Below are positions 505 to 15,165 of a stretch of 20,255 nucleotides of DNA, piece after piece (position 1 is the first letter of the stretch; every line of letters begins with the position of its first letter). The notes beneath the pieces were generated by a model. That model did not search any database and had not been told where the DNA came from. It saw only the letters and a program-made list of their open reading frames with translations. This DNA is from Vulcanimicrobiota bacterium (GTDB lineage Bacteria; Vulcanimicrobiota; Vulcanimicrobiia; Vulcanimicrobiales; Vulcanimicrobiaceae), in contig PLCF01000026.1 in the NCBI GenBank assembly GCA_003135555.1, positions 196-20,450 on the forward strand, in the 5' to 3' direction. Position numbers and translations under genes: made by a program.

Positions 505-1425
505 TCAGTCTCCGTGGGCGCCTGCCCAGGGCTGGGGCGCGATGGCGATGGCGTCGTTGGCGTAGCTGCGGATGTACGCAAACGAGACAAACCCGTAGCC
601 GTCGCTCCCGAAGCCGGTCCCCATGCTGTTGCGGAAGATAAAGTAGCCGCCGCCGGGGAACGCGCGCGACTCGCGGAAGCCCACGAGGTCGATTGAATGA
701 CCGTCGAACATCGGCGGGTTGGAGCCCGTGTTGGCGCTGCGCGGATAGTCCTTGAGCAGCGGAACGCCGGCAACGGTCACCGTGGGAACGTTGTTGTGCC
801 ACAAGGTGTCATTGAGCCACCAGATTCCGGTGGCCACCGGACGCCCCGAGCGCAAGATTGTGAGCGTGCGTTGAAGTTCCGCGCCGGTCATCCCCGTGGT
901 GTTGTCCCAGGTTTTGACGACCGTGAACGGATACTTCACCGGGAACATCGCCTGAGCTGCCGCGATCGTGGCCTTGTTCGGCGCCGCGGGATGGTTGGGA
1001 TCGTACGCCGCGCGGTAGGGCATCTCGCGCAGGGTGGCGATGCCCCACGTGCGATAGCCGCTCATGAACTTGGTGAAGAACCCACCGTCGGCGTCTTCAC
1101 CCGTCGCGCGGTTGCCGGCCCAGTTGAGATACTCTTCCGACAGGTTGCGGCCCCCGCGCGCGAGCGGCGTAGCGGCCTTCTGATATTCGATCAAAAACGT
1201 CGTTGCAAAAACGGTGCAGGTGCCGCGATTGCCCTGATCGCGCACGTGCAACCGGCGCTGCCTGATCGTGGGACGCAGGTCGACCTCCGGTGCGAGACCG
1301 GAAACGAAGTGCTCCACGAAGCGAACGTGGATCGGGACCGCGGGGCGCCATGCCGGCACGGCAGCCGCCGCAACGCCGGTCATCAGGAACGCCGACGCGA
1401 GGAACGAAGCAGGAAGCTTGTACAT
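505..1425 (-). CDS. Secreted C1 (papain-like) cysteine peptidase
   Basis: Signal peptide; VDLR motif; oxyanion Gln and catalytic Cys in VRDQGNRGTC; LSEEYL; catalytic His in GHSIDLVGF; catalytic Asn in FIFRNSMG..FGSDGYG. GGAGG lies 7 nt before ATG 1425, which favours it over ATG 1431. Confidence 0.9.
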   Translation of the reverse strand: MYKLPASFLASAFLMTGVAAAAVPAWRPAVPIHVRFVEHFVSGLAPEVDLRPTIRQRRLHVRDQGNRGTCTVFATTFLIEYQKAATPLARGGRNLSEEYLNWAGNRATGEDADGGFFTKFMSGYRTWGIATLREMPYRAAYDPNHPAAPNKATIAAAQAMFPVKYPFTVVKTWDNTTGMTGAELQRTLTILRSGRPVATGIWWLNDTLWHNNVPTVTVAGVPLLKDYPRSANTGSNPPMFDGHSIDLVGFRESRAFPGGGYFIFRNSMGTGFGSDGYGFVSFAYIRSYANDAIAIAPQPWAGAHGD

Positions 1426-1517
1426 GAGCATGCCTCCGGATCGATGCGCGAGCTTGCGCCTTTTCTGGTCCGGGCCGAGGCGGGCCTTCGAGCGCCGGCT
1501 GCGCGTGACGGCGGCCC

Positions 1518-1778
1518 ATGCTTTCCAATAGGCACAAGGGCCTCATTCGCGGCCTGATCTATCCGGTTCAGTTCGACCCCGACCCCGTCGACGGAGTCGA
1601 CCGAGTGCTCGAACTGGTCGTCTACCGGCGTGCGCTCGACGCGGGTCCCGACGAGTATTCGGCGGCCATTGCGGCCGCGCTGCAAAGCGACGAGCAGCTA
1701 GCGCCGCTGATACCTCAACCGCATTCCGAACCGGTTATCAGGGCTTATCTCACTGCGCTCCAGCAACGTTTGGCCTGA
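1518..1778 (+). CDS. Small helical hypothetical protein (86 aa)
   Basis: Fills the gap between two minus-strand genes and has protein-like composition (LIYPVQFD...ALQSDEQLAPLIPQPHSEPVIRAYL). Confidence 0.75.
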   Translation: MLSNRHKGLIRGLIYPVQFDPDPVDGVDRVLELVVYRRALDAGPDEYSAAIAAALQSDEQLAPLIPQPHSEPVIRAYLTALQQRLA

Positions 1779-1785
1779 TGCCCGT

Positions 1786-4440
1786 TCAGGGCCGCGCCCC
1801 GAGCGATTTCAGCGCCGCGTTCGCGGTGGCGCGCTGCCCGTAGCCGGGACAGTCGTGCGCCGCCAAACGGTAGAACGGTAGCGCCGTGTCCGGCGAACCC
1901 TGCACCGCATAGAATTCGCCGACGTAGAAGTTCGCCTCGCACAGCCGGCCCAGGTTTTTGGCCGGGTCGGGGTCGTGCGCCGCGGCAATGGTCGCGGCCG
2001 GCGCGCTCTGCCCGAGGAACAGCCGCACGATCGGCGCCGGCCACGCGCTCATGTCGAGCTGCTTGGCCGCATCCGAGAGCCGGCTTGGCGCGTGGCTGCG
2101 GCGACCCGTCACCTCCACGAGCAGCGCCGCGTACGCATCTTTGGGCGCGAGCGTGGCGGCTTTCTCGAAATCGGCGCGGGCCTGATCGAGCGGGCCGCCG
2201 CCGTACAGGTTCGCGATGCCGCGCATCACGTATGCGGCTTCCTGGTCGGGCGCGCCGTGGATCGCCGTGCCCAGGGTGGCGACGGCGCGTTCGCGATCGC
2301 CCGCGGCGAAGTAGTCGGAGCCCAGCGCGAGTTGGATGTAGGGCACGTTCGGATTGACGCGCACTGCCTGCTCGTAGTCCGCGATCGCGCGGTCGTGCTC
2401 GCCGCGCACGTCCTCGATGTACGCGCGCCCGGACAGCGCGAGCATGGCGTTGGGATCCAGGCGCAGCGCCTCGTTGTAGTCGGCGTACGCCCGGTCGTAG
2501 TCGAGCTTGAAACCGTACGCGATGGCCCGGTCCGTCCGGTACTTGGCGATGGCCGGCGCCAGGCGAATGGCCTCGCCGTAGTCCGCAACCGCACGATCGT
2601 AGTCGGCCTTGAGCTGGTACGCAAAGCCGCGCTGATCGTACGCGAAGGCGAAGGCCGGGTCGAGCCGGATCGCCTCGCTCAAGTCCGCGATCGCGCGGTC
2701 GTTATCGCCCTTGCGCTGGTACGCCATGCCGCGGCCCAGCCACGCCGCCTTGGAGGCGGGCTTGAGGCGCAGCGTTTCGTCGTAGTCCGCGATCGCGTGA
2801 GCGAAATCGCCCTTTGCGCGGTACGCGTTGCCGCGATTGTTATAGGCGGCGGCCAACTGCGGATTGAGCCGTATCGCCTCGTTTTCGTCGGCGATTTCCT
2901 TGTCGTAGTCGCGTTTGGTCTCGTATGCGAGGCCGCGGTTGTTGTAGGCCTCCGCATACCCGGGCTGCAGCCGGATCGCTTCCGTGTATTCGACGATCGC
3001 GCCGTCGTTGTCGCTGCGGTCGACTCGCAGGCGGTTGCCGCGGTTGAAGTGCGCGGCGGGATTCGCCGGCTCGATGCGAATCGCTTGGTCGTAGTCGGCC
3101 AGGGCCCGCACGTGGTCCCCTTTGGCATCGAACGATGCGCCCCGGTTGACGTACGCGTTGGCGTGGGTCGGCGCGAGGCGGATCGCTACGCCGTAGTCTG
3201 CGATCGCGCGGTCCTCGTCGCCGCTGTCGCTGTACGCGAGGCCGCGGTTGTAGTACGCCGATGCGTAGGCTGGATCGAGCCGGATCGCCTCGGTGTAGTC
3301 GGCGATCGCCCGCGCAAAGCTCTTTTTGGTTTGGTAGCTATTACCGCGGTCGTAGTAGGCGATCGCGTTGTTCGGGTTCAGGCGCAGCGACTCGTCGTAG
3401 TCGGCGATGGCGCGGTCGTGATTCCCGGCAACGTCGAAGGTCACGCCCCGATTGGTATAGGCGGAGGCGTGCTTGGGATCGAGCCGGATCGCCTCGTCGT
3501 AGTCCGCGACCGCTCGGGCGACGTCGCCCTTGCTCCAATAGGTATTCCCCCGGTTGTAGAACGGGACGGCGTCGCGCGGCGTAAGCCGAATCGCTTCGCC
3601 GAACTCCCCGATCGCGCGATCGTAGTTGCCCTGCGCGTGATCGACCGCGCCGAGGTTGTTGTACTCGCCGGCGATGCGCTCCGGATCGCCGCTCCGGCGC
3701 GCGAGCTCCAGCCTCGCGTCGTACGACGCTCGAGCAGCGGTGACCGTGTCGAATCGTTGAACGAACTCGGGCACGCCGAGCGGAAACGAGACGCTGGGCG
3801 TCCCCGTCGCCGCGATCACGTCGATCGCCTTGACCGACAGCGGCGCGGCGGACGACGGTGCCGACCCGGCCGTGCTTGCAACGGGCGCGTTGCGCGACGT
3901 TCGCGGCGCGTCTGGTTTCGCCGCGCCGATCTGCAGGCGCGCGGCGTAGGCCACGTCGACGCTGCCGCGGCGGCACGCGAAGGTCACCTTACGCCCCGAG
4001 GTGTCGAACGAGAACACCGTGCCGCGCGCCGAGGCGGTGAACGTGTTGCCGTAGCGCACTTGAAAGAAATCCAGCGCCCCGTGCACGACCGAGAACAGCG
4101 CGCTGCCGTGGGCCACGCTCGATCGTTCCCCGGCGCCGGTCGCGTCGAGCGTGAAGCTGGTGTCGGGCCGCAACGTGGTGGTGCTCTTCGCGTCCGTCGA
4201 CGCGATCACAACGGTCACCCGCAGCGGGACGTCGATGCGTGCGCCGTCCGGCAGCGTCGCATGGACGGTCAACGGTTGGGGGTGACCGCCGGCCGGCGTC
4301 ACCGTCGGCCGCGCGGTCGCACCCGGCTGCGTGCGGATCTCCAGCACGACGTGCTGCCGCACGGCGGCCCCGGCCGGTGCCGGACCGAGCGCGAGCAGCA
4401 GAAGCGTCGGGCCGAGCCCGAGTGCGAGGCGTCTGGTCAC
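1786..4440 (-). CDS. Secreted FecR-like domain + tetratricopeptide repeat protein with NlpI-like C-terminal cap
   Basis: Signal peptide (MTRRLALGLGPTLLLLALGPAPAGA). FecR-like beta domain (LRPDTSFTL...HGSALFSV...FQVRYGNTFTASARGTVFSFD...CRRGSVDV). About 15 TPRs (AYxNRG...D.AIADY.EAIRL.P). C-terminal WPAPIVRLFLG...LCEANFYVGE resembles NlpI. GTG start lies 1 nt after the upstream gene's stop. Confidence 0.88.
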   Translation of the reverse strand: MTRRLALGLGPTLLLLALGPAPAGAAVRQHVVLEIRTQPGATARPTVTPAGGHPQPLTVHATLPDGARIDVPLRVTVVIASTDAKSTTTLRPDTSFTLDATGAGERSSVAHGSALFSVVHGALDFFQVRYGNTFTASARGTVFSFDTSGRKVTFACRRGSVDVAYAARLQIGAAKPDAPRTSRNAPVASTAGSAPSSAAPLSVKAIDVIAATGTPSVSFPLGVPEFVQRFDTVTAARASYDARLELARRSGDPERIAGEYNNLGAVDHAQGNYDRAIGEFGEAIRLTPRDAVPFYNRGNTYWSKGDVARAVADYDEAIRLDPKHASAYTNRGVTFDVAGNHDRAIADYDESLRLNPNNAIAYYDRGNSYQTKKSFARAIADYTEAIRLDPAYASAYYNRGLAYSDSGDEDRAIADYGVAIRLAPTHANAYVNRGASFDAKGDHVRALADYDQAIRIEPANPAAHFNRGNRLRVDRSDNDGAIVEYTEAIRLQPGYAEAYNNRGLAYETKRDYDKEIADENEAIRLNPQLAAAYNNRGNAYRAKGDFAHAIADYDETLRLKPASKAAWLGRGMAYQRKGDNDRAIADLSEAIRLDPAFAFAYDQRGFAYQLKADYDRAVADYGEAIRLAPAIAKYRTDRAIAYGFKLDYDRAYADYNEALRLDPNAMLALSGRAYIEDVRGEHDRAIADYEQAVRVNPNVPYIQLALGSDYFAAGDRERAVATLGTAIHGAPDQEAAYVMRGIANLYGGGPLDQARADFEKAATLAPKDAYAALLVEVTGRRSHAPSRLSDAAKQLDMSAWPAPIVRLFLGQSAPAATIAAAHDPDPAKNLGRLCEANFYVGEFYAVQGSPDTALPFYRLAAHDCPGYGQRATANAALKSLGARP
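2131..3666 (-). repeat. Array of about 15 TPR-coding units (about 102 bp each)
   Basis: Counted by eye from EYNNLG... to ...APKDAY; 512 aa. Confidence 0.9.
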
Positions 4441-4441
4441 G

Positions 4442-6178
4442 TCATGCTGACCCCGTAGGGGCTGCGAGTGGAGGAGGCGGTTTGGGTTCCAGGCCGGCGA
4501 GGATCTCGGCGACGATCTCCGCGACGAGGCCGGGCCGGTCGTCGATGCTCGCGGCTTGAATGTCGTCGACGGTGGCCAAGATCACCGGCTTGCCGCGCAT
4601 GATCGGAAGGACACACCGCGAGCCTTCCCCAGCCGTGATCCATTTCCGGTGCGCGCGCTTGATTTCGAACCGGCAGTACGGCCGCTGGAAGTAGGTTTCC
4701 GAGTACACCGGAACGACGAACCGGCTGCCGTCGATCGCCAGGCTGATCTTGTCCTGCCAGGCCGAGCCGACCCGGATCGACGAGGTGTCGAAGAAGATTT
4801 CGAGCTTGCGCCCGTCGGCGGAGCGCGCGTCCTTGAGCGGGACGAACACGTTTTCGTAGACCCAGCTGAACTCGTCGTGCGCGTACGAGATGAACACGTC
4901 GTAGTCGTTTGATTCTTCGGGCGGGGCATCGATCGCCCGCGACTGCTCGAACAGGATCTCCCGCCCGCGCTCGCCGCACAGCCCGGCCGCAAAGAGCACG
5001 CTCATCGCAACCAGGCTCACCTGGGGTTGAATCTGCCGCGCGACGAGCATCCAGGCCTCGAACGCGCCGAATGCCGCCAGGGCGAATGCGCCGGCCGCGC
5101 CCGCGGCGATCCAGGGAAGGGAGCTGCGCAGCGCGCGTAGCTGGAGCCGGCGCAGCCCTTGGAAAACCGCGATGAAAGCGACCAGCGTGAGCGCTGCAAA
5201 CCCCGCGACGAGCAGTGCGAGCAACTCGTTGGCGGGGAGCGGCTGAAAATACCCCGAGTCGGCGTTCTTGCGCTCGAGCAGATCGCTCAGCGCCCACGCC
5301 AGCAGCTCGGGATTGCTGCGCGGTGCCGCTCCGCGGTGCAGCGGCCCCAAGTCCTTCTCCAGCGTCGCGACGATGACGTATTTCCCGTTGAAATCGGCGC
5401 CGGCGGGGAATGGCTGCGCCCGCGTCACGCGCTGCACGCTCTGGGCGAATGCCGCCTGCGCTCCCAGCCGCACCGCCTCCATCGTTTGCGTCGCCCCGGA
5501 GCGATCGCAGGCCGCTCGGGGTTCCCCGGCGACGTCCTTGACCGCGCGGTACGGCAGCGCCCAGAGATCTTGGGTCCCGGCAACGTTCCCTTTGCTGTCG
5601 GTTTGCGGAAGCCGATAGCAGCGCTGGTAGAACACGCCGTCCGCCGCGGCGAGCTGCAGAATCGTGTGACCGGCCGCCAGATGATCGTAGACGTTGTCGC
5701 GATCGAGCGCGCCCAGCGACGCCGCGTCGATCTGACCGGCGCCCTGCGTCGCGACCGGATTCTCCGTCGCGTACACGGCGATTTTTGGCGCGGCCGCAGC
5801 CGCGGCGTCGAGGCTCTTGGTCAACGCCGCGGTCGCCGCATCGGGACGGCACGCCTGGGTATCGGGCGTCGCGCAGACCGACTCGAAGTACAGGTCGAGC
5901 AGTACCGCGGCGGGCCGCTGGCCGTGGGCACGCAGGCCGTCAAGGAACTGCGCGATCGTTTGACGATCCCGGGCCGGAGCACGCTGGTCGTAGTCCGCGA
6001 GATCGACGACGGAAACGTTGCCGGCGAATGCCGGCGCATGCAGGTTGCTCAAGGATTGGAACACCGACCAATCCCACTCGTGCCACACCGGCGCCAGCAC
6101 GAACGTCGCCACCCCGAGAAGCGCGACGTAGACCGCGATCAGGACCGCCGTCGCCCGCAGCCAGGGCTGATTGGTCAC
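4442..6178 (-). CDS. CHASE2-domain membrane receptor with C-terminal TIR domain (578 aa)
   Basis: The GTG start at 6178 overlaps the upstream TGA (GTGA). N-terminal TM; CHASE2-like motifs (VSVVDL...R..IAQFLDGL...PAAVLLDLYFE; FNGKYVIVA; NPELLAWALSDLL); three TM helices. TIR domain: YDVFISYAH...IFFD...I.VG..W...I..AIDGSRFVVPVYSETYFQRPYCRFEI, with the catalytic-position Glu codon at 4664-4666. The ORF-track extension to 6787 overlaps the upstream gene in another frame. Confidence 0.88.
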   Translation of the reverse strand: MTNQPWLRATAVLIAVYVALLGVATFVLAPVWHEWDWSVFQSLSNLHAPAFAGNVSVVDLADYDQRAPARDRQTIAQFLDGLRAHGQRPAAVLLDLYFESVCATPDTQACRPDAATAALTKSLDAAAAAAPKIAVYATENPVATQGAGQIDAASLGALDRDNVYDHLAAGHTILQLAAADGVFYQRCYRLPQTDSKGNVAGTQDLWALPYRAVKDVAGEPRAACDRSGATQTMEAVRLGAQAAFAQSVQRVTRAQPFPAGADFNGKYVIVATLEKDLGPLHRGAAPRSNPELLAWALSDLLERKNADSGYFQPLPANELLALLVAGFAALTLVAFIAVFQGLRRLQLRALRSSLPWIAAGAAGAFALAAFGAFEAWMLVARQIQPQVSLVAMSVLFAAGLCGERGREILFEQSRAIDAPPEESNDYDVFISYAHDEFSWVYENVFVPLKDARSADGRKLEIFFDTSSIRVGSAWQDKISLAIDGSRFVVPVYSETYFQRPYCRFEIKRAHRKWITAGEGSRCVLPIMRGKPVILATVDDIQAASIDDRPGLVAEIVAEILAGLEPKPPPPLAAPTGSA

Positions 6179-7788
6179 GTTCCGCGACCGATCACGCGCA
6201 GCGGGCGGTCGCGGCGCGCCAGCAGCCATTCGGCCTGCTCGACGAGCGCCTCGCGTCCGACCTCGCGCAGGACCTGGGCCTGACCCGTGGACTCGCCGCC
6301 GGCGCGGTGATGCAGCTGATGCAGCGCGCGATCGAAGACGCTGAACATGCGGTCGTAGCGCTTTGCGTTCGCCGAATACCCTCGTTTGTCGGCGTAGCTC
6401 GCGAACAGCGCAGCCGCCGCCCCGACGAGCGCCGCGAACGACGCGGCCCAATGCTGCGCGCTCACCGCCATCGCGCCGAAGAGCGAGCTGAACGGCGGCA
6501 GCAGCAGGATCGCGACGACGACGATCGATCCCACGCCGATCCATTGCGAAACCTTGCCGATCCGCTGGTAGACTTGGGCGCGACGTTGATCGCGCGTCGC
6601 GGCGCGATGGTAGTACCGCCACTGCTCGCGCACCCAGTCCAAGGCGAGGCGCTCGTTGCGCGCCTGCGGTGTAAGCGATTCCACGAACGCCGCCGAGCGA
6701 AGCACCATCCGGATCCATTGCAGCTCGCTCTGCTGCATCCGCATATAGTACGGATCGACGAACTCCTCGCCGCCGACCGCGTTCCAAGCGATCTGGACGC
6801 GCAACCCCTCGCTGACCGCGCGGTAGTCTTGATAGCGGTTTTCAAGGTCGGCGCCGCGCACGATACGATACGCGATGAACGCCGCGACCAGCGTGGCGAT
6901 CTTGACTGGCTCGGGCCCCAACGTGTCGCCGAATCCGAGCTGCGCAGCGATCGCGATCAGGGCGAGGGCGTAAAGCACCCGGAGCTGTGAGAGCGCACGT
7001 CCCTGCAGCCGGTTCGCCGTTCGGTCGGTTCGCGCCATCAATCCAGGCAGCCCGGCGGCTGCGGGCGACTCGGCCGTCGCGGCGAGATCCGCATTGAAGC
7101 GATCGAGCAGCCCGATCGCCGCGTCGAAGCTCGCTCGCGCTTTCCGGTCGCCGGAGAAACGCCGCGGATAGCGGCGCTGGACCGAGAACGTTGCGTCCGG
7201 CCGCGGCTTGCCTAGGCGCGACGTGACGATTTGGAAGACCGGCGTCGGATCGGGCTGATGACGCTCGTCGATGCTCGAGGCCCACCGCGTCGACGCAAGT
7301 CCCGTCTCGCGGAGCTGCACGATGCCGGCGGTCGCCCCAGGCGCCGGCGACGTCGCGCCGTCCCAAAGCGCGATGAGGATGTGGCTGTGGAATGCGAGGT
7401 ACCAGCCCGTCGCGGCCTCGCCCCCGGTATCCGCCTCCGCGTGCGCGACGACCGAGACGTGCGAGCAGCGAGCCAAGACTGCGCGCAGACGCGCCGCATC
7501 GGCCGGCGTGAGGTCGCGTTCGTACGTCTCGGGCGACATCGCCATGCACCCGATGACGGCGAGTCCCGCGTCGAGCGCGACCTCGGCCGACAGCAGCCCG
7601 GCGCCGCGGCGCAGCAACGAAAGCACGACGAGGCGCGTGTGCGGCACGCTCCGCGCGACGTCGTCGAGCAACGCGCGCAAGGCAGCGCGCATCGCAGGCT
7701 CGTCGGCTGGTACGATCTCGCGATGGCCGGTGATCCCCACCACGAGCGCAGCGCCATCCGATGAAAACGCCGGCGGTGCCTGCTCCAC
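6175..7788 (-). CDS. SLOG (YpsA-like) nucleotide-binding domain fused to SLATT-type transmembrane modules
   Basis: N-terminal VVGITGHR...VVLSLLRRGAGLL.AEVAL...HILIALWDG...PGATAGIV matches the SLOG fold motifs (TGHR, G-A-D loop, WDG..GGT). The C-terminal half has two 2-TM hairpins, each followed by a conserved-looking helix (YQDYRAVSEGLRVQIAW; WVREQWRYY; VGREALVEQAEW), typical of SLATT/DUF4231-like modules. Start uncertain: GTG 7788, 7833 or 7842. Confidence 0.75.
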   Translation of the reverse strand: MEQAPPAFSSDGAALVVGITGHREIVPADEPAMRAALRALLDDVARSVPHTRLVVLSLLRRGAGLLSAEVALDAGLAVIGCMAMSPETYERDLTPADAARLRAVLARCSHVSVVAHAEADTGGEAATGWYLAFHSHILIALWDGATSPAPGATAGIVQLRETGLASTRWASSIDERHQPDPTPVFQIVTSRLGKPRPDATFSVQRRYPRRFSGDRKARASFDAAIGLLDRFNADLAATAESPAAAGLPGLMARTDRTANRLQGRALSQLRVLYALALIAIAAQLGFGDTLGPEPVKIATLVAAFIAYRIVRGADLENRYQDYRAVSEGLRVQIAWNAVGGEEFVDPYYMRMQQSELQWIRMVLRSAAFVESLTPQARNERLALDWVREQWRYYHRAATRDQRRAQVYQRIGKVSQWIGVGSIVVVAILLLPPFSSLFGAMAVSAQHWAASFAALVGAAAALFASYADKRGYSANAKRYDRMFSVFDRALHQLHHRAGGESTGQAQVLREVGREALVEQAEWLLARRDRPLRVIGRGT

Positions 7789-7792
7789 GCCT

Positions 7793-7806
7793 CCTGCGTA
7801 CGCAGG
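7793..7806. promoter_or_regulatory. Perfect 14-bp palindrome CCTGCGTACGCAGG at the 5' end of the SLOG-SLATT gene
   Basis: Self-complementary sequence read directly; it overlaps a minus-strand AGGAGG just before GTG 7788. Function not established. Confidence 0.35.
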
Positions 7807-7859
7807 CGCAGTCCCCCGCTCCTCCGCACGCACGGTCTGCACGCCGTTGCCGGACCCGG

Positions 7860-8684
7860 TCAGGTTTCGATCGGCGTATCGGTGGCCTTTCCCCACTCCG
7901 CCCACGAGCCGTAGTAGACGCGAACGTCGCGGTATCCGAGGAGATACGTCAACGCGAACCACGCCTGGCTGGCCCGATTGCCGATCGTGCAATAGGTGAC
8001 GACCTCGGATTGCGCCGTGACGCCGCGATCTTGCAAGGTCTGCCGCATCTCGTCGGCGTTCCTGAAACTACCGTCATCGGTGCGCAGCAGCTCGATCGGG
8101 ACGTGCACGGCGCCCGGTATGTGCCCCGCGCGTCCGGCCCCTTCGGTCGCGCCGGACGGCCAGAACCGTTCGCCGTCGTACTCGGCCTGCGAGCGCGTAT
8201 CGAGGATCAATGGAGTCGGCCGGCCGATCGTCTCCCGTACGCTCTCCTTCGACGAGAACAACGCGTTCGGCGCGGCGAGCGCGTAGTGCGAGGGCGCGAA
8301 CGCCGGAACATCCGTGGACCACGTTCGGCCCGCGGCGATCCACTGGTCGCGCGAGCCGTCCATCAAGCGCACCCGATCGTGTCCGTGCGCCTTGAGCAGC
8401 CAGAAGCCGAGGTGAGCGCCGTAGCCGTAACAGACGACCGTCGTATCGGGAGTCACTCCGGATTTGCGCAGGACGTCTTGCAACTCGGCGGCGTTTACCG
8501 GGCGGTAGTCGGGGTGGCGCAAATCGGTGTACGCATTCCAGAGCGCGGCCCCGGGAATGTGCCCGGCGTTGTACGCCGATGCGCTGACATCGATCTCCAC
8601 GATCCGCACGGACGGATCGTCGATGCGCGCCGCGATCCAGGCTGCGTCGACGCGTCCATCCGGGGAAGTATCAGCAGATTCCAC
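7860..8684 (-). CDS. Two-domain rhodanese-family sulfurtransferase (thiosulfate/3-mercaptopyruvate type)
   Basis: YNAGHIPGA, VVCYG, LDTRSQAEYDG, GHIPGA, active-site loop YCTIGNRAS, C-terminal VYYGSWAEW. AGGAGG lies 5 nt before GTG 8684. Confidence 0.93.
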   Translation of the reverse strand: MESADTSPDGRVDAAWIAARIDDPSVRIVEIDVSASAYNAGHIPGAALWNAYTDLRHPDYRPVNAAELQDVLRKSGVTPDTTVVCYGYGAHLGFWLLKAHGHDRVRLMDGSRDQWIAAGRTWSTDVPAFAPSHYALAAPNALFSSKESVRETIGRPTPLILDTRSQAEYDGERFWPSGATEGAGRAGHIPGAVHVPIELLRTDDGSFRNADEMRQTLQDRGVTAQSEVVTYCTIGNRASQAWFALTYLLGYRDVRVYYGSWAEWGKATDTPIET

Positions 8685-8889
8685 GGCTACCTCCTGGTCC
8701 CCGAGCCTTTGGACGGCGGCTTGCGTTTTCCCATCCGCGAGCGAGCGGGCGCACGTTCCAACCCACCGCCTGGTATGCCGAGGACATCGCGTTCTTCGCG
8801 GAATACAACCGAATTCGCGAGGAGTGGTTCGGCCCTCACGGACCCGGCGATGCACAACTCGCCGAATACTTCGGACAGCTGGAGAGCAC

Positions 8890-9912
8890 GTGAGCAAGCC
8901 GAGAGTCCTCTACGTATTGGTCCAATACCCTCAGCTGTCCGAGACGTACATCCGTGCGGAGATCGAGGCGATCCGCGCCGACTTCGACGTTGAGATCATC
9001 TCCTTGATACCCGCCGATTACCCCTACGCGAACTACTTCCCGTTCAAGCTTCTTCCGACGCGCGCCGAGATCCAGAGCGAGATCGAGCGCTTCCGCCCGC
9101 ACCTCGTGCACACGCATTGGCTACACACGCAACTGGAGCTCGTGATCGATCTTTCGCGCGCGAACGGCATCCCGTTCACGGTGCGTTCGCACTCCTTCGA
9201 CACGCTCTTCGACGCCGTACCGCAGCACCTCGCGGCTTCGGTCGAGGCGCTCAACAGCGACCTCTGCCTAGGAGTGTTGACGCTTCCGTTTGCAGTGCAG
9301 CGGCTGCGCAACGCGGGCATCGACGCCCGTAAGATCAAGGCCGTCTATCCGGCCGTCCAATACGCGGAGTTCCTCGACCGCGGCCCCAACGGCGACGCGG
9401 TGATGAACGTCGGAGCATCACTGCCCAAGAAGAAGTTCGAAGACTTCGTCGCGCTCGGCGCTGCGCTCCCGGGTGTCGAGTTCAACCTCTATTCGATCGG
9501 GTACCTATCCGATTCGATCCGTGCCGTGAACGAGGCGCACGGGAGCCCCGTGAACGTTCGGCGCCCGGTCGAACCGAGCGAGATGCCCGCGGTCTACAAG
9601 GCGCACCGCTGGCTGGTGGTGACAGCCGACAAGTCGATGGGAACCGTGGGCTGGCCACTGTGCATCGCCGAGGCGCAAGCGAGCGGCGTGGGCGTCTGCG
9701 TGCCGAACTTGCGCGAGGACTTGAAGGACTACGTCGGAGCGAGCGGCTTCTTCTACGACTCGATCGACGAGGTTCGCGAGATCATCTCGCGACCGTATCC
9801 GGACCACATGCGCGAAGCGGGGTACGTGCAGGCGCGCAAGAGCGACATCGGCATCCATAAGTCGGTGCTCACCGACCTCTGGGAATCTGCTACGCCTGCT
9901 GCGCTGAGGTAG
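8890..9912 (+). CDS. Glycosyltransferase, GT-B fold (family 4, WcaL-like)
   Basis: YPQLSETYIRAEI (FPxxSETFI-like), PHLVHTHW, IPFTVRSHSFD, KKKFEDFV, GWPLCIAEAQASG. GGAG precedes GTG 8890. Confidence 0.85.
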   Translation: MSKPRVLYVLVQYPQLSETYIRAEIEAIRADFDVEIISLIPADYPYANYFPFKLLPTRAEIQSEIERFRPHLVHTHWLHTQLELVIDLSRANGIPFTVRSHSFDTLFDAVPQHLAASVEALNSDLCLGVLTLPFAVQRLRNAGIDARKIKAVYPAVQYAEFLDRGPNGDAVMNVGASLPKKKFEDFVALGAALPGVEFNLYSIGYLSDSIRAVNEAHGSPVNVRRPVEPSEMPAVYKAHRWLVVTADKSMGTVGWPLCIAEAQASGVGVCVPNLREDLKDYVGASGFFYDSIDEVREIISRPYPDHMREAGYVQARKSDIGIHKSVLTDLWESATPAALR

Positions 9913-10840
9913 CTTCGTGCCGGGCCACCGACCCGGCAAGCTGACGGACGTACCCCGCCGCCAGCTGCATCGGGTTTAGGATCGCAGCGTTGCCGTAGCG
10001 CCAGATCGGAACGGGCGCGAGCGGGTCGTACGTCAGCGTCGGGTCGGTCGGCGTGCCGGCGTCGTCGGCGTAGTTCAGCGCGATCTCGTACACGTCGTCA
10101 TCACTCCATGCCGGCGCCGATTCGAGCTTATCGAACAGCCGCCGCTGATGCCAGCCCATGCCCATGCCCACGCCGTCGTGTCCCATCGCGAGATAGGCGC
10201 CCCACCCCAGCAGCACCTTTCCTTGGATCTGGGCCAGGCTGCGCACGGGGAAATGCGCGAGGGCCGCGTCCGCCAGCAGTTCGGACGGCGCGGTGCCGCG
10301 TGCGTCGAACGCATAATGGTTCCCTTGAGAGATCGCGAAGTCTCCGCGTTGTGCGTATCCACGCGAGAGCACGCATTTGGTGTACGCGGGGCTCGCCTCG
10401 ACCAACCGCCGGTGACGGATGCGTTCGAGAACGCGCGGCACGTCGGCCGGATCGCGCGGTGTCGGAACGTACGTGAGCCAGGACAGGCGCCCGTTCTGCC
10501 CAGGCGAGAGCGCAGCCAGCGATCCCTCGAGGGCGTTACGGTCGGTGACCTTTACGAACTCGTCGGCGTCGAGGAGAAAGAGAAAATCCCAGTCCGATTC
10601 CGCCGCGGACTGACGGGCGACGCGGGTCACGGTTTCGTATTGCCGCTTCGGCAATAACGGATCGTGCAGGATCGTGACCGCAAGACCTTCGGCGCGCAGC
10701 GCTTCGAGAACGGGCAACGTTCCATCGAACGAGGCGTTATCGACGACGGTCAGCGCATCCAGATAGCTGAGGTTATGGCGCACGAACTCCTCGATGACAT
10801 CGCCTTCGTTCTTGACGCGCGCCAGCCCATGCAGCTTCAA
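9890..10840 (-). CDS. Glycosyltransferase family 2 (GT-A)
   Basis: VKNEGDVIEEFVRHN, VVDNASFDGT, DxD motif in FLLDADEF, QGNH, HFPVRS. TTG start; overlaps the convergent GT4 gene by 23 nt. Confidence 0.88.
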   Translation of the reverse strand: MKLHGLARVKNEGDVIEEFVRHNLSYLDALTVVDNASFDGTLPVLEALRAEGLAVTILHDPLLPKRQYETVTRVARQSAAESDWDFLFLLDADEFVKVTDRNALEGSLAALSPGQNGRLSWLTYVPTPRDPADVPRVLERIRHRRLVEASPAYTKCVLSRGYAQRGDFAISQGNHYAFDARGTAPSELLADAALAHFPVRSLAQIQGKVLLGWGAYLAMGHDGVGMGMGWHQRRLFDKLESAPAWSDDDVYEIALNYADDAGTPTDPTLTYDPLAPVPIWRYGNAAILNPMQLAAGYVRQLAGSVARHEATSAQQA

Positions 10841-10924
10841 CGAAGTGACGCGTTACAACACTTCCAGACGGCAACCTCCCAACGCCCAGCCGCTGATTCC
10901 GGCCCGGCGGCGCAGTTCACCCGC

Positions 10925-11131
10925 TCAAGAGAAGCGGAACCGCAGCGCAGCGGTGGTTCTCACCGGGCGATGCTGCGCGCACGACACGAGCCTCAGGTCG
11001 TAGAAATCGTCACCTTCCGCGGCGCACCCGCACGGCCATGAAACCGCCGCATGTGGTCCGTGCGCGCACTCGACGGCGAGCCGGTTGGGACGCCCCACCA
11101 GGGCGGTCAATTCGCGAAGCGTAGTCCGCAA
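10925..11131 (-). CDS. Small Cys/His protein (68 aa), W-x-CGC...C-x2-H, putative metal-binding
   Basis: GGAGGTG precedes TTG 11131; VSWPCGCAAEG...LRLVSCAQH. Paralogous to 11280-11519. Confidence 0.7.
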   Translation of the reverse strand: MRTTLRELTALVGRPNRLAVECAHGPHAAVSWPCGCAAEGDDFYDLRLVSCAQHRPVRTTAALRFRFS

Positions 11132-11279
11132 GGTCGTCACCTCCGGAGAGCACGGGTATCGATCGTACGCGGCACGTTCGCGCCCGGTCTGCCTGCGACC
11201 GTACATTGCACCGCCCGCCGCCGGTAGGTGTGCCCATCCTCACAGCGGCGCAGCGCCGCGCGAGAAGCCGGCGCCGCGT

Positions 11280-11519
11280 TTAGCCGATCATCCAGTCTCC
11301 GGCGAACTCGGGGACGAACCGGCCGCGCTCTTCGGACGCCGGCGTGCCGTGATCGGGGCAGGCCCGCAGGCTCAGCTCGCGCATCGTCTCGCCGTCGGCA
11401 TGGCAGCCGCAACGCCAGCGTACGCCGACATCTCCGCTACCCTCGCTGAGCCGCGGAAGGTTGATGACGAAGCGGATGGGGCGTCCCAGGCGCTTCAGCA
11501 AGGTGGCGTAGGTCGGCAC
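11280..11519 (-). CDS. Small Cys/His protein (79 aa), W-x-CGC...C-x2-H, putative metal-binding
   Basis: GGGGGA precedes GTG 11519; VRWRCGCHADG...LSLRACPDH. Paralogous to 10925-11131. Confidence 0.72.
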   Translation of the reverse strand: MPTYATLLKRLGRPIRFVINLPRLSEGSGDVGVRWRCGCHADGETMRELSLRACPDHGTPASEERGRFVPEFAGDWMIG

Positions 11520-11656
11520 GGCTTTGTCCCCCCGAAGAGTTCGCTCGATGGTTCGAGACTACGGCTCCGGGGGCGACGATCCCATACCTGAAACCGGGTA
11601 CCGTCCCCGGAGCCCAGGCTGCCACCGGCTCGGCCGCAAGTCAACTAAGAAAATAG

Positions 11657-14600
11657 TTAGAATCGGCCCGCGACCGCCTCGAAGCCGCAGAAGGCCGCGA
11701 CCGATCGCAGTTGCTCGACGCTCGAAGCTCGGGTCTCGAACAGCCGCGGCGAGCAGACCAGCACGGCCAGAGCGCGACCGCGCGACAGCGCCACGTTGAA
11801 GCGGTTCTCCTCGAACAAGAAATCCGCGCCGCGCGGGGCGTCGTCGGCGCTCGACGCCGCGACCGAGTAGATCACGGCCGGCGCTTCTTGGCCTTGGAAC
11901 TTGTCGACCGTACCGACCCGGACGCCGTCGCCGAAGCGTTTGCGCAAACGCCGCCGCAGCAGCCGCACCTGCGCGTTGTACGGCGACACCACCAGCACGT
12001 CGTGGGCGGTGATCGCGTGCTCGGCGCCGAGCCGGTCGGTGAACGTTCCCCCGATCAGCCCGCCCAGGATCTCTTCGACGGCCGCCGCCTCCTCGTCCGA
12101 AGACTGCGCGTTGGACTCGTGCACGACCGGAACGTAGCGCAGTCCCGCGCCGGCGAACCACGGCGCATCGATGCGCTGCCGCGCGCACGACGCCGCCGCG
12201 CACAACCGCCCCTCGTACACCATCTCCGAAACGAACTCGCACAGAGCCGGGTGCATGCGAAACGTGCGATCCAGAAAGACGCCGCGGTCTTCGGGGATCG
12301 TGCCGCGCGGCGCGAGGCTGCCGGGCTCGGCGAGCAAGTGCTCGAGCACCGAGGCGCCGACGCCGTCGGGATGGGTGCCGACGGAAACGTGCGCGAGCTG
12401 TAACGGATCGCCGAGCAGGATGACGTTGTCGGCGTTCGTCGCCATCGCGAGCGCGTCGGCGAGCGCGACCTGGCCGGCTTCGTCGATCACCAGATAGTCG
12501 ACGCGCGCGAGGTCGTCGCGCGAGAACAGCCACGATGTCCCCGCGACCAGCTCGTACTCGCCGAACGCTGCGTTCTTCTCGGCGTTCTCGATGAACGACT
12601 CCGGGCGAATCGACTCGAACGGCGAGTCGGGATTGGCCTTGTCGCACTTCTTGACGCCGCGGAAGACCTCGCCGCGCTCGTCGACCGCGGCCTCGACCGC
12701 GTGCAGCAGGTTGTTGATCGCCTTGTGGCTGTTCGAGGTGACGCCGACGCGCTTGCCGGCGGCGAGCAGCGTGGCGATGACGTGTGCGCCGTCGAAGGTC
12801 TTGCCGGTGCCGGGCGGGCCTTGCACCGCGAGCGCGCTGCGGTCGAGGCGCAACGCGAGGCTGGCGATGTCGGCCGGATCGATCGCTTCGGCGCCGGGAC
12901 GAATCTGCGGCTGCACCCGGTCGCCCTCGTGCAGCCCGGTGATGCGCGGCCGGGCGCGGCGCAGGATCTCCGATGCGGCGGGATACGCAACGGTCTGCGT
13001 GCCGTCGAGCGCGGCCTGCGCGAGCCGGAGCAGCGCGGCCTGCTGCACGCCGGTGTAGATCGGCCCGCCGGGCACCAGCGCGCGCGGATGCGGATCGTGC
13101 GGCCACTTCTTGACCCGCACGAGACGCGCGTCTTCGTCGACCTGCACGACCTCGAGCGCGGCGGCGTCGCGGCGGTCGACGTCGAGGAACGAGCCCGGGC
13201 CGACCTTGTGCTGCTGCACCGGAAACCGGTACGTGTACGTCGCGCGCGTCCCGCGCCGTGTCGGTTCGAGCGCTGGAAACTCGGTTGCGAGCTCGAGCTC
13301 GCCGAGCGCGTCGGAATCGTCGACGAACGTATCGTCGGGCGCGCGCTCGTAGCGGTCGAACAGCGCCCACCAGACCGGCTTCTCTTCGCGCCGGTGGTAG
13401 CCGGCGAGGTGCGCCAGCAGCTCGCGCTCCGACCCCGGCGGCGCGTCGGCCAGGAGCGCGAGCTGGACGTCGTTGAGCCGGCGCAGCTCGCGCAGCTTCT
13501 CCTCGGTGGGCAGCTTCGGGTCGCGCTCGGCGCGGAACGCGATCTCGAGCGCGTAGCTCGAACGCGCCTCGTCGCGCAGTTGCAGCAGCCACTCGTGCAG
13601 GCGGCGGGTCGAGATGCAGTCTTCTTCGTTGTACCGCACGATGTCGCGCCGGCGCGCGGGGTCGCGGTCGAGCAGGTACTCCTCGAACGCGACGATCGAC
13701 TGATCGCCCTGGCGCACGTCGGCGTCGCGTACGAACCCGTAGAACAACTCGAGCTTCTTGATCGAGTAGCCTTCCTGCGACTGCGCGAGTGCGCCCTTGA
13801 CGACCGCGTACAGATCGACCAGTACCTCGCCACGCAGCAGTTCGTCGACCTCTTCCTCGCGGGTGCCGTGCCGCATCGCGAGCCGGCGCAGCGCCGTCTT
13901 TTCGTACGCCGCGTAGTGGTAGACGTGCGCGCGCGGATGCTGCCTGCGGTGCGCCATGAGCCAGTCGACGAAACGCTCGAACGCAGCGCGCTCTTGCGTC
14001 CGCGTCTCGCCCCAGAACTCACGATACGGCTCGCGCGCATCTTCGGGGACGAACGCGCCGAACAGATATTCCAGCCCGATCCGGGGCTCGTAGAGCGGGT
14101 CGCCTTCCATGTCGAAGTACACGTCGCCGTCGGCCGGCGGCGGCAGCGCACCGAATCCGTGCAGCTCGCGCGGCGCCAGCAACTCGTACGACGGCCGGCC
14201 CGTCGCGCGCTGATGCAGCTGCAGCGATGCTTGCCGCTGCAACGTCGCGAAGGTCTTTTCCACCACCCCGGGCGGACGCGCCGCCGCGCTCGCGGTGGCC
14301 AAGCCTTCGAGCGTGGCGATGCCGCCGGCAGCGAGCCGCTGCGTTTGGTCGCGCCGTATCCCCGCCACCAGCGAGAGGTGATCGACGCCGCGCCGCACCG
14401 CATCGCACTGCGCTTCCCAACCGCACTGTCCGCACGCGGTCACGCGGTCGGGGACCGCGGCAGGGTCGAGCGTCGCGAGCGCCGCTTCGAAGCGGCGCTT
14501 GGCCGCACGCACGTACGCGACGTAACGGCTGGGGTCGTACGCCGTTTCATGGCCGTCGCCGAAGAGCGCGCGCACGCGCCGGGGCAGCGCGCCCTGGACG

Positions 14601-15079
14601 GCGGCGAGCAGGTCGGCGTACACGCACAGCTGGACGATGAACTCGGGCTTCTCGGCGGTCGCCAACTTCGTGTCGGCGACCTCGTACGACCACGCCCCGA
14701 GCCGGCTGGCTTCCTCGACGCGCAACAGGAAGTCGGCGCGCCCGGTCCAGGCGCCGTCGAGGAACGAGGCTTGGTAGATCGCCGGCGCACCGCTCGCCAT
14801 GGCGACCCGTGTCGCCTCGACCGCGCGCGCCAGGTCGCGGGCGGTGTTGTCGCCTTCGGGGACGCGCACGACGGCGACCCCGCTCGCTTCGAGACGTTCG
14901 AGCACGCGCCGCTCGTGCTCGCGCCCCTTGCGCGCGATGATCTCGAGCGTGGGATCGTCCTCGGGCCGCGCGTCGCCGCGGGCGAGCGCGCGCCGGTTCA
15001 GCGCGACCCGATGCGGGCACGCCAGGTAGTCGTTGAGGTCGGAGGCCGCGAGGACGACCCGGCCGTCAACGAGGCGCAC
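11657..15079 (-). CDS. TM0106-family RecB-like nuclease fused to RNase H-like domain and SF1 (Dna2/Nam7-like) helicase
   Basis: PD-(D/E)xK motifs GRADFL and YEVADTK; Cys set LACPH...CGQCGWEAQC; YFDMEG...YNEEDC; helicase motifs QGPPGTGKT, IDEAGQ, GDPLQL, SPYNAQV, GTVDKFQGQE, RFNVALSR. Confidence 0.93.
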   Translation of the reverse strand: MRLVDGRVVLAASDLNDYLACPHRVALNRRALARGDARPEDDPTLEIIARKGREHERRVLERLEASGVAVVRVPEGDNTARDLARAVEATRVAMASGAPAIYQASFLDGAWTGRADFLLRVEEASRLGAWSYEVADTKLATAEKPEFIVQLCVYADLLAAVQGALPRRVRALFGDGHETAYDPSRYVAYVRAAKRRFEAALATLDPAAVPDRVTACGQCGWEAQCDAVRRGVDHLSLVAGIRRDQTQRLAAGGIATLEGLATASAAARPPGVVEKTFATLQRQASLQLHQRATGRPSYELLAPRELHGFGALPPPADGDVYFDMEGDPLYEPRIGLEYLFGAFVPEDAREPYREFWGETRTQERAAFERFVDWLMAHRRQHPRAHVYHYAAYEKTALRRLAMRHGTREEEVDELLRGEVLVDLYAVVKGALAQSQEGYSIKKLELFYGFVRDADVRQGDQSIVAFEEYLLDRDPARRRDIVRYNEEDCISTRRLHEWLLQLRDEARSSYALEIAFRAERDPKLPTEEKLRELRRLNDVQLALLADAPPGSERELLAHLAGYHRREEKPVWWALFDRYERAPDDTFVDDSDALGELELATEFPALEPTRRGTRATYTYRFPVQQHKVGPGSFLDVDRRDAAALEVVQVDEDARLVRVKKWPHDPHPRALVPGGPIYTGVQQAALLRLAQAALDGTQTVAYPAASEILRRARPRITGLHEGDRVQPQIRPGAEAIDPADIASLALRLDRSALAVQGPPGTGKTFDGAHVIATLLAAGKRVGVTSNSHKAINNLLHAVEAAVDERGEVFRGVKKCDKANPDSPFESIRPESFIENAEKNAAFGEYELVAGTSWLFSRDDLARVDYLVIDEAGQVALADALAMATNADNVILLGDPLQLAHVSVGTHPDGVGASVLEHLLAEPGSLAPRGTIPEDRGVFLDRTFRMHPALCEFVSEMVYEGRLCAAASCARQRIDAPWFAGAGLRYVPVVHESNAQSSDEEAAAVEEILGGLIGGTFTDRLGAEHAITAHDVLVVSPYNAQVRLLRRRLRKRFGDGVRVGTVDKFQGQEAPAVIYSVAASSADDAPRGADFLFEENRFNVALSRGRALAVLVCSPRLFETRASSVEQLRSVAAFCGFEAVAGRF

Positions 15080-15165
15080 GCATCACCATTGCCAGGCTCA
15101 TACGACGATAGTAGGCGGTGTCCGTGCCAGGCGGGTGGCAGTCCCGCCCGTCGAACTCTGGCCGC

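Follow-up and report, generated by a model that had tools for sequence, protein, structure and literature searches.

Thoeris TIR proteins, as described, are soluble and are triggered by phage infection inside the cell. Here we report a three-gene locus in which a TIR domain is instead predicted to form the cytoplasmic end of a membrane receptor. The locus lies in a 20,255-nucleotide stretch of a Vulcanimicrobiota bacterium (assembly GCA_003135555.1, contig PLCF01000026.1; hereafter the window), where the genes g1 (SLOG-SLATT), g2 (CHASE2-TIR) and g3 (FecR-TPR) stand together on the minus strand. Thoeris-type TIR signalling is the best-supported reading of this operon, and the closest described system is type VII Thoeris, which consists of the TIR protein ThsB and the SLATT effector ThsH and uses a canonical cyclic ADP-ribose (cADPR) signal (10.64898/2025.12.03.692087, December 2025). 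The same report describes type VIII Thoeris as a TIR with an effector that joins a cytidine monophosphate (CMP) hydrolase to TPRs, has the SLOG domain of ThsA sense 3'cADPR, lists phospholipases among predicted Thoeris effectors, and mentions that SLATT effectors are also used in CBASS (cyclic-oligonucleotide-based antiphage signalling); the words CHASE, FecR and periplasm are absent from its main text. Work from the Aravind group predicts SLATT to be a membrane effector that responds to nucleotide signals, and places cADPR sensors among those SLOGs that form the YpsA-like clade (PMC9503650, PMC7159879).

The window shares with type VII Thoeris a TIR gene that adjoins the gene for an effector, in the window a putative SLATT-type membrane protein, and the proposed logic is the same, in that an ADP-ribose (ADPR) derivative made by the TIR would activate a membrane-breaching protein. 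The differences concern both ends of the pathway. Here the TIR ends a CHASE2 membrane receptor with a predicted secreted FecR-TPR partner, whereas in type VII it belongs to a soluble phage sensor; and g1 has a YpsA-like SLOG domain and two SLATT hairpins, whereas the passages of that report on ThsH mention no SLOG (g1 and ThsH being compared by description only). Type I Thoeris, in which the TIR protein ThsB is paired with the SIR2-SLOG protein ThsA, is described as using a SLOG as the receptor of a TIR-made cyclic ADPR isomer, as we propose for g1, but it differs in having a SIR2 NADase where g1 has SLATT hairpins and in lacking a membrane receptor as sensor, and neither ThsA nor ThsB was matched in our searches.

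SLOG and SLATT were reportedly defined by Burroughs et al. in 2015 in Nucleic Acids Research (NAR). CHASE2 receptors usually have a cyclase, a kinase or a GGDEF domain as their output, whereas the output domain of g2 is a TIR. Otherwise g2 follows the pattern described for CHASE2 receptors (CyaD1, CyaD2 and CyaK of Sinorhizobium meliloti, which go with NsrA, and those of Burkholderia and Campylobacterota), both in its order of helix, CHASE2, three helices and cytoplasmic output and in having an adjacent, extracytoplasmic partner with a FecR domain and TPRs. An operon of a LysM-FecR protein and a CHASE2 histidine kinase is documented for Burkholderia in a 2016 paper that calls what CHASE2 and its FecR partners detect unknown (PMC5192318), and the CHASE2 cyclases of Campylobacterota are described as clustered with FecR-domain and TPR proteins (PMC9239204). 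One further paper names CHASE2 once, among the variable domains at the C-terminus of caspase proteins (PMC8195603). An earlier interpretation of this DNA, made from the letters alone (the sequence-only reading), had named NsrA as an example of a secreted FecR/TPR protein. That example calls for correction: PMC13001267 presents NsrA as a beta-barrel protein of the outer membrane, whereas the prediction for g3 is a soluble, secreted protein in which the Pfam TPR matches run on to the C-terminus.

Two further comparisons can be drawn. Animal Toll-like receptors and SARM1 share with g2 a sensor outside the cell, a membrane span and a TIR in the cytoplasm, and TRR-2, TLR, MyD88 and SARM1 are among its fold matches; unlike Toll-like receptors, g2 has CHASE2 rather than leucine-rich repeats (LRR) as its ectodomain and would act through an enzymatic messenger rather than adaptor recruitment, so that the resemblance is one of design and not of membership. 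With CBASS, for which SLATT effectors are described, the locus would share a SLATT-type membrane protein, and patatins found beside related receptors match models of CapV-type CBASS phospholipases, but the nucleotide source here would be the TIR, and Pfam found no CD-NTase or other cyclase among the window open reading frames (ORFs).

Neither a CHASE2-TIR receptor nor the set FecR, CHASE2-TIR and SLOG-SLATT turned up in the full-text literature searched, and the PADLOC models, which the sequence-only reading had wanted consulted for an already named system, name none for the trio. The sequence-only reading knew of no characterised case of the three-gene combination; one part of it, TIR with SLATT, is already known as type VII Thoeris, and for the CHASE2/FecR input we found no account in that literature. 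What is new here is this surface input, the effector with a SLOG and a double SLATT, and the link of the receptor to an effector.

Organization and domains of the three genes

According to the ORF list, positions 1786-7788 are filled by three co-oriented minus-strand ORFs, which overlap by GTGA at 6175-6178 and leave a gap of 1 nt at 4441, exactly as in the sequence-only reading. All five domain assignments made there (FecR with TPR, CHASE2, TIR, SLOG and SLATT) held in profile or fold searches, SLATT being below threshold in g1 itself and supported by its family. The features, all on the minus strand, are as follows.

6175..7788, minus strand: g1, SLOG-SLATT effector, 537 aa (ORF and start)
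7159..7749, minus strand: YpsA-like SLOG (Rossmannoid) domain, putative messenger sensor, g1 residues ~14-210 (model and Foldseek)
About 7590-7610 and 7320-7340, minus strand: altered SLOG motifs, g1 residues ~62-64 and ~150-153 (family alignment)
6745..7053, minus strand: first SLATT-type two-helix membrane hairpin, g1 residues ~246-348 (sub-threshold SLATT_3 and DUF4231; hydrophobic segment 269-287)
6214..6654, minus strand: second SLATT-type hairpin, g1 residues ~379-525 (sub-threshold SLATT_1; hydrophobic segments 422-440 and 448-466)
6175..6178, minus strand: GTGA, overlap of g1 stop and g2 start (read from the sequence; bridged by independent contigs)
4442..6178, minus strand: g2, CHASE2-TIR receptor, 578 aa (ORF and Pfam)
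5201..6121, minus strand: N-terminal membrane helix (11-29) and extracytoplasmic CHASE2, g2 residues 20-326 (Pfam CHASE2 20-326; hydrophobic segment 11-29)
4976..5221, minus strand: three membrane helices after CHASE2, g2 residues ~320-401 (hydrophobicity and model)
4490..4903, minus strand: cytoplasmic TIR domain, g2 residues ~426-563 (Pfam TIR_2; PDB profile and Foldseek matches)
4664..4666, minus strand: codon of Glu505 (in CRFEI), putative catalytic glutamate (codon confirmed by translation)
4441, minus strand: 1-nt spacer between g2 stop and g3 start (ORF coordinates; bridged by independent contigs)
1786..4440, minus strand: g3, predicted secreted FecR-TPR protein, 884 aa (ORF and Pfam)
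4366..4440, minus strand: signal-peptide-like N-terminus, g3 residues 1-25 (hydrophobic segment 5-23, then AGAA)
3706..4365, minus strand: FecR-type N-domain common to the partner proteins of CHASE2-TIR, g3 residues 26-245 (Pfam FecR, iterated profile)
2131..3744, minus strand: TPR array of about 12 repeats, g3 residues ~233-770 (TPR_11, TPR_1)

The receptor gene g2 has more than 120 clusters of full-length homologues. It matches Pfam CHASE2 with E 3.8e-9 (36.9 bits, cut-off 26.3) and Pfam TIR_2 with E 6.2e-14 (residues 428-532), and its AlphaFold2 model reached a predicted local distance difference test score (pLDDT) of 81.5. Hydrophobic segments lie at residues 11-29, 320-338, 361-379 and 383-401, and the model has helices at 318-344, 354-379 and 387-417. 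Since hydrophobicity and model together give one helix, CHASE2, three helices and a TIR, the CHASE2 domain should face the outside and the TIR the cytoplasm. When the single g2 TIR sequence was compared with PDB sequences, nothing was found at E<=0.01. A profile of 23 g2 homologues (A1) matched TcpB/BtpA at 1.5e-9 and then TLR2, L6 and AbTir, and the model of the TIR domain matched TRR-2, MyD88, AbTir and SARM1 in Foldseek, AbTir and SARM1 being NADases. Glu505 is invariant in 23/23 aligned homologues and is aligned by the profile with the Glu of ARELD in TcpB and that of CKYELD in TLR2, a column that we take to hold the catalytic Glu of TIR NADases. PADLOC v2.0.0 matched g2 to PDC-S66 (7.3e-11, in the TIR part) and RT-TIR_XII only, with no match to ThsA or ThsB.

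The AlphaFold2 model of g1 has a pLDDT of 89.4 and a predicted template modelling score (pTM) of 0.89. Its best fold match in the PDB is YpsA (2nx2; Foldseek E 2.5e-4, prob 1.00, template modelling score (TM) 0.68 on the target), followed by ShosA, DprA, N-terminal regions of TRPM8 and LOG-like chains; YpsA, ShosA, DprA and the TRPM8 regions are presumably all members of the SLOG superfamily. Pfam gave no SLOG match for g1; among 34 members of the g1 family, matches at E<=0.05 were to DNA_processg_A (DprA) in 12/34 and to YAcAr in 7/34. The SLOG domain is followed by two hydrophobic helix pairs, and the model has long helices. At the same threshold, SLATT is supported in the family by DUF4231 in 27/34 members (best 5.1e-8), SLATT_3 in 16/34 and SLATT_1 in 12/34. 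Compared with PDB sequences, the g1-family profile gave chance-level matches only.

The third gene matches Pfam FecR with 24.8 bits as a whole protein and 28.4 bits with the N-domain alone (cut-off 24), and of 42 N-domains aligned from the partners of CHASE2-TIR, 27 reach E<=0.01 with Pfam FecR. Its TPRs were matched by TPR_11 (1.1e-81, in 12 stretches) and TPR_1 (1.7e-80). Hydrophobic leaders also occur at the start of g3 homologues, and from its N-terminus g3 is predicted to be a soluble, secreted protein. An outer-membrane beta-barrel was considered for the C-terminus, where TPR-type Pfam matches extend to about residue 768 and the tail looks helical by eye. A complex prediction of CHASE2 (g2 residues 30-318) with the FecR N-domain, run without controls, returned 'no answer' with a score of 0.00 and so speaks neither for nor against binding.

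The gene boundaries were examined individually. For g1, GTG at 7788, preceded by GGAGG, is the most likely start; a longer start, TTG at 7992, was rejected because it would overlap the end of the upstream rhodanese gene at 7860. The database protein P0121 (537 aa) is identical to the g1 product. At the first junction the g1 stop TGA (6177-6175) overlaps the g2 start GTG (6178-6176). The database representative of g2 has 591 aa, 13 aa more than with the 6178 start; the N-termini of homologues speak for 6178, and the genes are tightly packed with either start.

The source genome comprises 3.57 Mb in 98 contigs and is 84% complete, the window being part of contig C11, and near-identical DNA is present in peat metagenome runs. 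The 6175-6178 junction is crossed by the 8,522-nt records of X3 and X4, by X6 record 24 and by X7 record 29, and the 4440-4442 junction by X3 record 4, X4 record 11 and X6 record 19. These contigs belong to other peat runs, spread over three or more studies, and show 0-10 differences from the window. Because independent contigs bridge both junctions, an assembly artefact is excluded for the gene arrangement. In the proline-rich tail at the C-terminus of g2, the X3 and X4 contigs lack 12 nt in frame (position 4502), a strain-level length variant. A scan of 1300-8100 for promoters and terminators was uninformative, with 0 promoter-like sites and 5 terminator-like sites against a shuffle mean of 4.0.

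Linkage of the sensor pair and the effector

CHASE2-TIR relatives account for at least 223 of 603 pattern matches examined in a scan of one genome per species, some of them matching the TIR part only. From the matches listed we assembled a set of 78 loci, with taxon labels taken from the database records. A simple gene caller missed several genes in high-GC loci, and hence all counts of neighbours are from profile searches, iterated from the window domains, of six-frame ORFs. A CHASE2 match at E<=1e-10 is present in 73/78 loci, and a FecR-domain gene accompanies CHASE2-TIR in 65 of these 73, in 64 of them on the same strand. Of the eight loci without one, seven end at a contig edge, leaving L023 as the single unexplained miss. 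The closest relatives of the window belong to candidate division WPS-2 / Eremiobacterota / Vulcanimicrobiota, labelled Eremiobacterota below. The FecR gene lies downstream of the receptor gene in 23/24 of the Eremiobacterota cases (27 loci) and upstream in 40/41 of the others (46 loci), which are from Bacteroidota, Beta- and Alphaproteobacteria, Chlorobium, Gemmatimonadales, Verrucomicrobiia (for example L031) and Acidobacteriota. Some loci have two FecR-domain paralogues (L008, L020, L027 and L040, from Chlorobium limicola), with one on each side of CHASE2-TIR in L040.

FecR with CHASE2-TIR is a two-gene core that is found across many phyla. The partnership of secreted FecR-domain proteins with CHASE2 receptors, which the sequence-only reading took as established, agrees with the 65/73 count, and we regard the FecR-CHASE2 partnership as highly probable.

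The distribution of SLOG-SLATT is different. It is present in 17/27 Eremiobacterota CHASE2-TIR loci and in 1/46 loci from other phyla, the alphaproteobacterial L032, which has FecR, CHASE2-TIR, SLOG-SLATT and a patatin together. Thus, the effector is almost confined to the window's phylum. In a sample of 251 genomes of that phylum, the SLOG-SLATT query was found in 75 and the CHASE2-TIR query in 21. All 21 receptor genomes have SLOG-SLATT, as against 54/230 genomes without the receptor (75 and 54 include the unpublished genomes G178 and G248; without both, the values are 73/249 and 52/228), although 21/21 overstates the statistics because related genomes are not independent. For that reason we give more weight to the arrangements, which have been reshuffled. 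SLOG-SLATT lies within 2.1 kb of CHASE2-TIR in 12/21 genomes and occurs in at least four arrangements: upstream and co-oriented, downstream of FecR, divergent, and with CHASE2-TIR first. The recurrence of the same genes together in related genomes, in several arrangements, indicates that the trio is more than a chance neighbourhood. The co-occurrence of receptor and effector expected from the joint operon of the sequence-only reading holds within the phylum, in 21/21 receptor genomes, and is absent from nearly all loci outside it. We conclude that the trio is not a fixed unit; it consists of a widespread two-gene sensor core and a lineage-restricted, exchangeable effector.

Genomes with SLOG-SLATT and no CHASE2-TIR bear on the effector independently of this receptor. 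We examined 19 such loci, chosen among the top hits and from long contigs and hence not a random sample of the 54. Another TIR-domain ORF lies within 6 kb of SLOG-SLATT in 15/19. According to Pfam, these are TIR-NB-ARC/STAND-TPR proteins, TIRs paired with an nSTAND1-TPR protein, and short TIRs, and in a FastTree domain tree, taken without regard to support values, the TIRs of CHASE2-TIR form a group of their own apart from them. Since 15/19 loci have TIRs from outside the CHASE2-TIR clade, the tie of the SLOG-SLATT family is to TIR proteins in general and does not depend on the sensor that they carry. This is the pattern expected of a response to a TIR product and gives independent support to the TIR-to-SLOG-to-SLATT relay that had been proposed from the letters; we consider coupling of TIR to SLOG-SLATT likely.

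Further effector genes and genomic setting

Other candidate effectors stand beside the receptor in related loci. A patatin gene is present in 12/78 loci from four phyla and is co-oriented with SLOG-SLATT in L006 and L030; the neighbouring patatins match PADLOC models of CBASS phospholipase effectors at 1e-34 to 8e-36. In L003 and L005 the patatin is followed by a small protein whose copy in the source genome is homologous to the g1 SLOG (hhalign probability 93.5%, E 2.4e-7). A tblastn search of the window with the sister-locus patatin and small SLOG found nothing at E<0.3. The position that these two genes occupy in the sister loci corresponds to that of a window gene at 505-1431 (minus strand), 355 nt downstream of g3, whose 308-aa product begins with a hydrophobic stretch and weakly matches Peptidase_C1 (papain family, 4.5e-8).

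In the closest sister loci, L003-L005, the place of the window's GTGA overlap is taken by a gene of 454 aa, which separates SLOG-SLATT from CHASE2-TIR. The gene encodes a TIR-like N-terminus (PADLOC CBASS 'Effector TIR', 1.4e-7) followed by matches to MAP3K_TRAF_bd (1.2e-43) and TPR-S (4.6e-22), and its positions are:

L004:6640-8001, plus strand: inserted TIR-like and TPR-S gene
L003, from 3139: the same gene
L005, from 6658: the same gene

By description only, it resembles the hydrolase-TPR effectors of type VIII Thoeris, and from its domains it may be a further messenger-responsive effector.

The source genome has a second SLOG-SLATT copy, in L100 (contig C52:13000-26300), where SLOG-SLATT, a patatin and a small SLOG stand in a row:

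6054-7754, minus strand: SLOG-SLATT paralogue, 38% identical to g1 over residues 134-533
4876-6111, minus strand: CBASS-type patatin
4319-4879, minus strand: stand-alone SLOG, 186 aa

On another contig of the same genome (L002, C50:60910-64209), positions 751-2112 (minus strand) encode a 454-aa TIR protein (TIR_2 8.6e-19, residues 113-224) that has no CHASE2. It is a possible partner of the SLOG-SLATT copy on C52, despite lying on a different contig.

In three Kriegella loci (L042, L045 and L050, about 1300-15400), CHASE2-TIR and FecR stand among conflict-type genes, namely those for a TPR-S protein, a patatin, a pYEATS-TIR protein, a second TIR, a protein with a peptidoglycan-binding domain and a DUF7379-LCAT-CHAT-TPR-S protein of 1846 aa. 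A SIR2_2-TIR gene lies near the receptor in L039, with a homologue in L051 according to clustering.

Within the window, positions 11657-15079 (minus strand) encode a protein of 1140 aa with RNase_H_2, a weak Cas4-like region and a superfamily 1 (SF1) helicase that resembles MkoA/MkoC of PADLOC (6.8e-46). Homologues of this helicase are found near the receptor in five related loci (L005, L010, L011, L014 and L017).

A pattern-based search of viral contigs, which can miss relatives, found one TIR-only match to the receptor and one SLATT-region match to the effector, and so gave no sign that the system is phage-borne. The latter match is on a 52.9-kb IMG/VR viral contig (L102:6001-7185) and is a relative of the SLATT half of g1, with 36% identity over residues 277-530.

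Proposed circuit and alternatives

On the observed gene layout, domain identities, topology (from hydrophobicity and the model) and gene linkage we propose a circuit whose biochemical steps we infer throughout. The FecR-TPR protein g3 would detect or relay an envelope or extracellular cue and act on the extracytoplasmic CHASE2 domain of g2. A change in CHASE2 would then repack the cytoplasmic TIRs, which would use NAD+ to make an ADPR-derived messenger, probably a cyclic ADPR isomer; the conservation of Glu505 and the known TIR enzymes suggest this step. The YpsA-like SLOG of g1 would bind the messenger, and the two SLATT hairpins would disturb membrane integrity or ion balance, leading to growth arrest or death, a gating step that we draw from what is known of the families. 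In relatives, the CBASS-type patatin with its stand-alone SLOG and the TIR-like and TPR-S protein are predicted to be parallel outputs that respond to the messenger. Its role most likely lies in conflict or defence, with phage contact, predators or an attack on the envelope as the trigger at the cell surface. For the circuit as a whole, a Thoeris-like TIR pathway with extracytoplasmic input and a role in conflict, the balance of evidence is modestly favourable. A more general version, in which an envelope ligand gates CHASE2-TIR and the messenger both opens SLOG-SLATT and fires a CapV-like phospholipase or TPR-S protein, the two-gene core being a general input module for different effector sets, we put forward tentatively, as somewhat less probable than its negation.

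Several observations weigh against the proposed circuit. In g1 itself the SLATT models remain below threshold: SLATT_3 has E 8.8e-4 (20 bits, cut-off 26.3), DUF4231 has E 8e-3, and SLATT_1 has E 9e-3 over residues 386-521 (16.5 bits, cut-off 26.3). PADLOC v2.0.0, whose library is without models for Thoeris types V-XI, matched nothing in g1, ThsA and ThsB included. At two conserved motifs the SLOG of the window's clade departs from the family consensus, with GAG for GAD and GAT for GGT, and its messenger pocket may be altered. Physical linkage is incomplete even within the phylum, SLOG-SLATT and CHASE2-TIR being 4.8-16 kb apart in 3/21 genomes and on different contigs in 6/21. One of these six must be truly unlinked, as its assembly has only 5 contigs, and in all about one third of the co-occurring genomes have receptor and effector unlinked or unresolved. 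No TIR was found nearby in 4/19 SLOG-SLATT loci with the queries used, and none lies within 6 kb of the second copy on C52. Finally, Pfam and PADLOC found no clear defence island in the window, where the only similarity of this kind is the partial one of the helicase to MkoA/MkoC, and synteny of that helicase in five related loci points to a stable place in the chromosome more than to a defence island.

The last two observations bear on the alternative that survives best, namely that the same relay serves ordinary physiology, with the TIR product tuning ion flux through SLATT and lipid turnover through the patatin in a non-lethal way. Regulatory systems are known in which CHASE2 receptors have FecR-domain partners, as described in PMC5192318 and PMC9239204; the window has no mobile-element or defence-island signature and keeps its helicase neighbour; and the system is essentially not found on viral contigs. 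However, its distribution in the phylum is patchy, with CHASE2-TIR in 21/251 genomes and in 2/14 of the window's genus apart from G000, and the modules associated with it are of conflict type (CBASS patatin; TPR-S, CHAT, pYEATS-TIR and SIR2-TIR in Bacteroidota loci; and the TIR-STAND partners of the SLOG-SLATT family). SLATT and TIR are moreover described as immune components where they have been characterised (10.64898/2025.12.03.692087, PMC9503650, PMC7159879). We consider a purely physiological role unlikely.

Alternatively, CHASE2-TIR might itself be the effector, depleting NAD+ in the manner of SARM1, with SLOG-SLATT a separate or merely modulatory neighbour. Evidence for this comes from outside the phylum, where SLOG-SLATT is missing within about 8 kb of CHASE2-TIR in 45/46 loci, and where a family-profile search of five whole genomes found a convincing homologue in 0/5, with one match of 58 residues at E 1.3e-4. 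These observations also weigh against our circuit, as they imply that the receptor needs no SLOG-SLATT and may act by NAD+ depletion alone, and TIR domains are described as NAD+-depleting effectors in other systems (10.64898/2025.12.03.692087). Against this stand the 21/21 co-occurrence, adjacency in several arrangements, the 4-nt overlap in the window and the ties of the SLOG-SLATT family to three or more other types of TIR. In addition, effectors with a SLOG or TPR-S sensor domain, and a CapV-like patatin, are grouped near the receptor in several phyla, the pattern predicted by a diffusible signal. NAD+ depletion by the receptor alone seems to us a slightly poorer explanation than a physiological relay.

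It is improbable that the g1 SLOG is an enzyme or a sink that cleaves or sequesters the TIR product or another nucleotide, with the membrane part serving only as an anchor. SLOGs do include N-glycosidases, and viral SLOGs have been proposed to degrade cADPR-type signals (PMC9503650, PMC7159879); a stand-alone SLOG paralogue also lies beside the patatin in L003, L005 and L100. The fold of g1 is nearer to the YpsA/DprA branch than to LOG enzymes, however, and the same two sources predict its architecture, a fusion with two SLATT hairpins, for a messenger-gated membrane effector. The loss of conserved polar and glycine motif residues in the window's clade speaks against catalysis, although it might equally weaken binding. 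That the three genes are neighbours by descent only, without a functional link, is very improbable, since their linkage was kept while order and orientation were reshuffled at least four times and the alphaproteobacterial L032 has the whole set with a patatin, even if shared ancestry among close relatives of one phylum inflates the co-occurrence counts.

If the proposed Thoeris-like pathway is correct, a TIR on a CHASE2 receptor with a secreted co-receptor would place the trigger outside the cytoplasm, a Toll-like design built from unrelated sensor parts. On the more general version, immune or danger sensing would start in the envelope, ahead of any entry by foreign nucleic acid or in its absence, and the FecR/CHASE2-TIR core, present in at least seven phyla, would be a general input module for different effector sets. 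With SLOG-SLATT, patatin and TPR-S genes beside it, the receptor family has a candidate downstream pathway, and these neighbours speak for a TIR that produces a signal and does more than consume NAD+. The finding is also relevant to the cues that CHASE2 domains, with their FecR partners, detect more widely.

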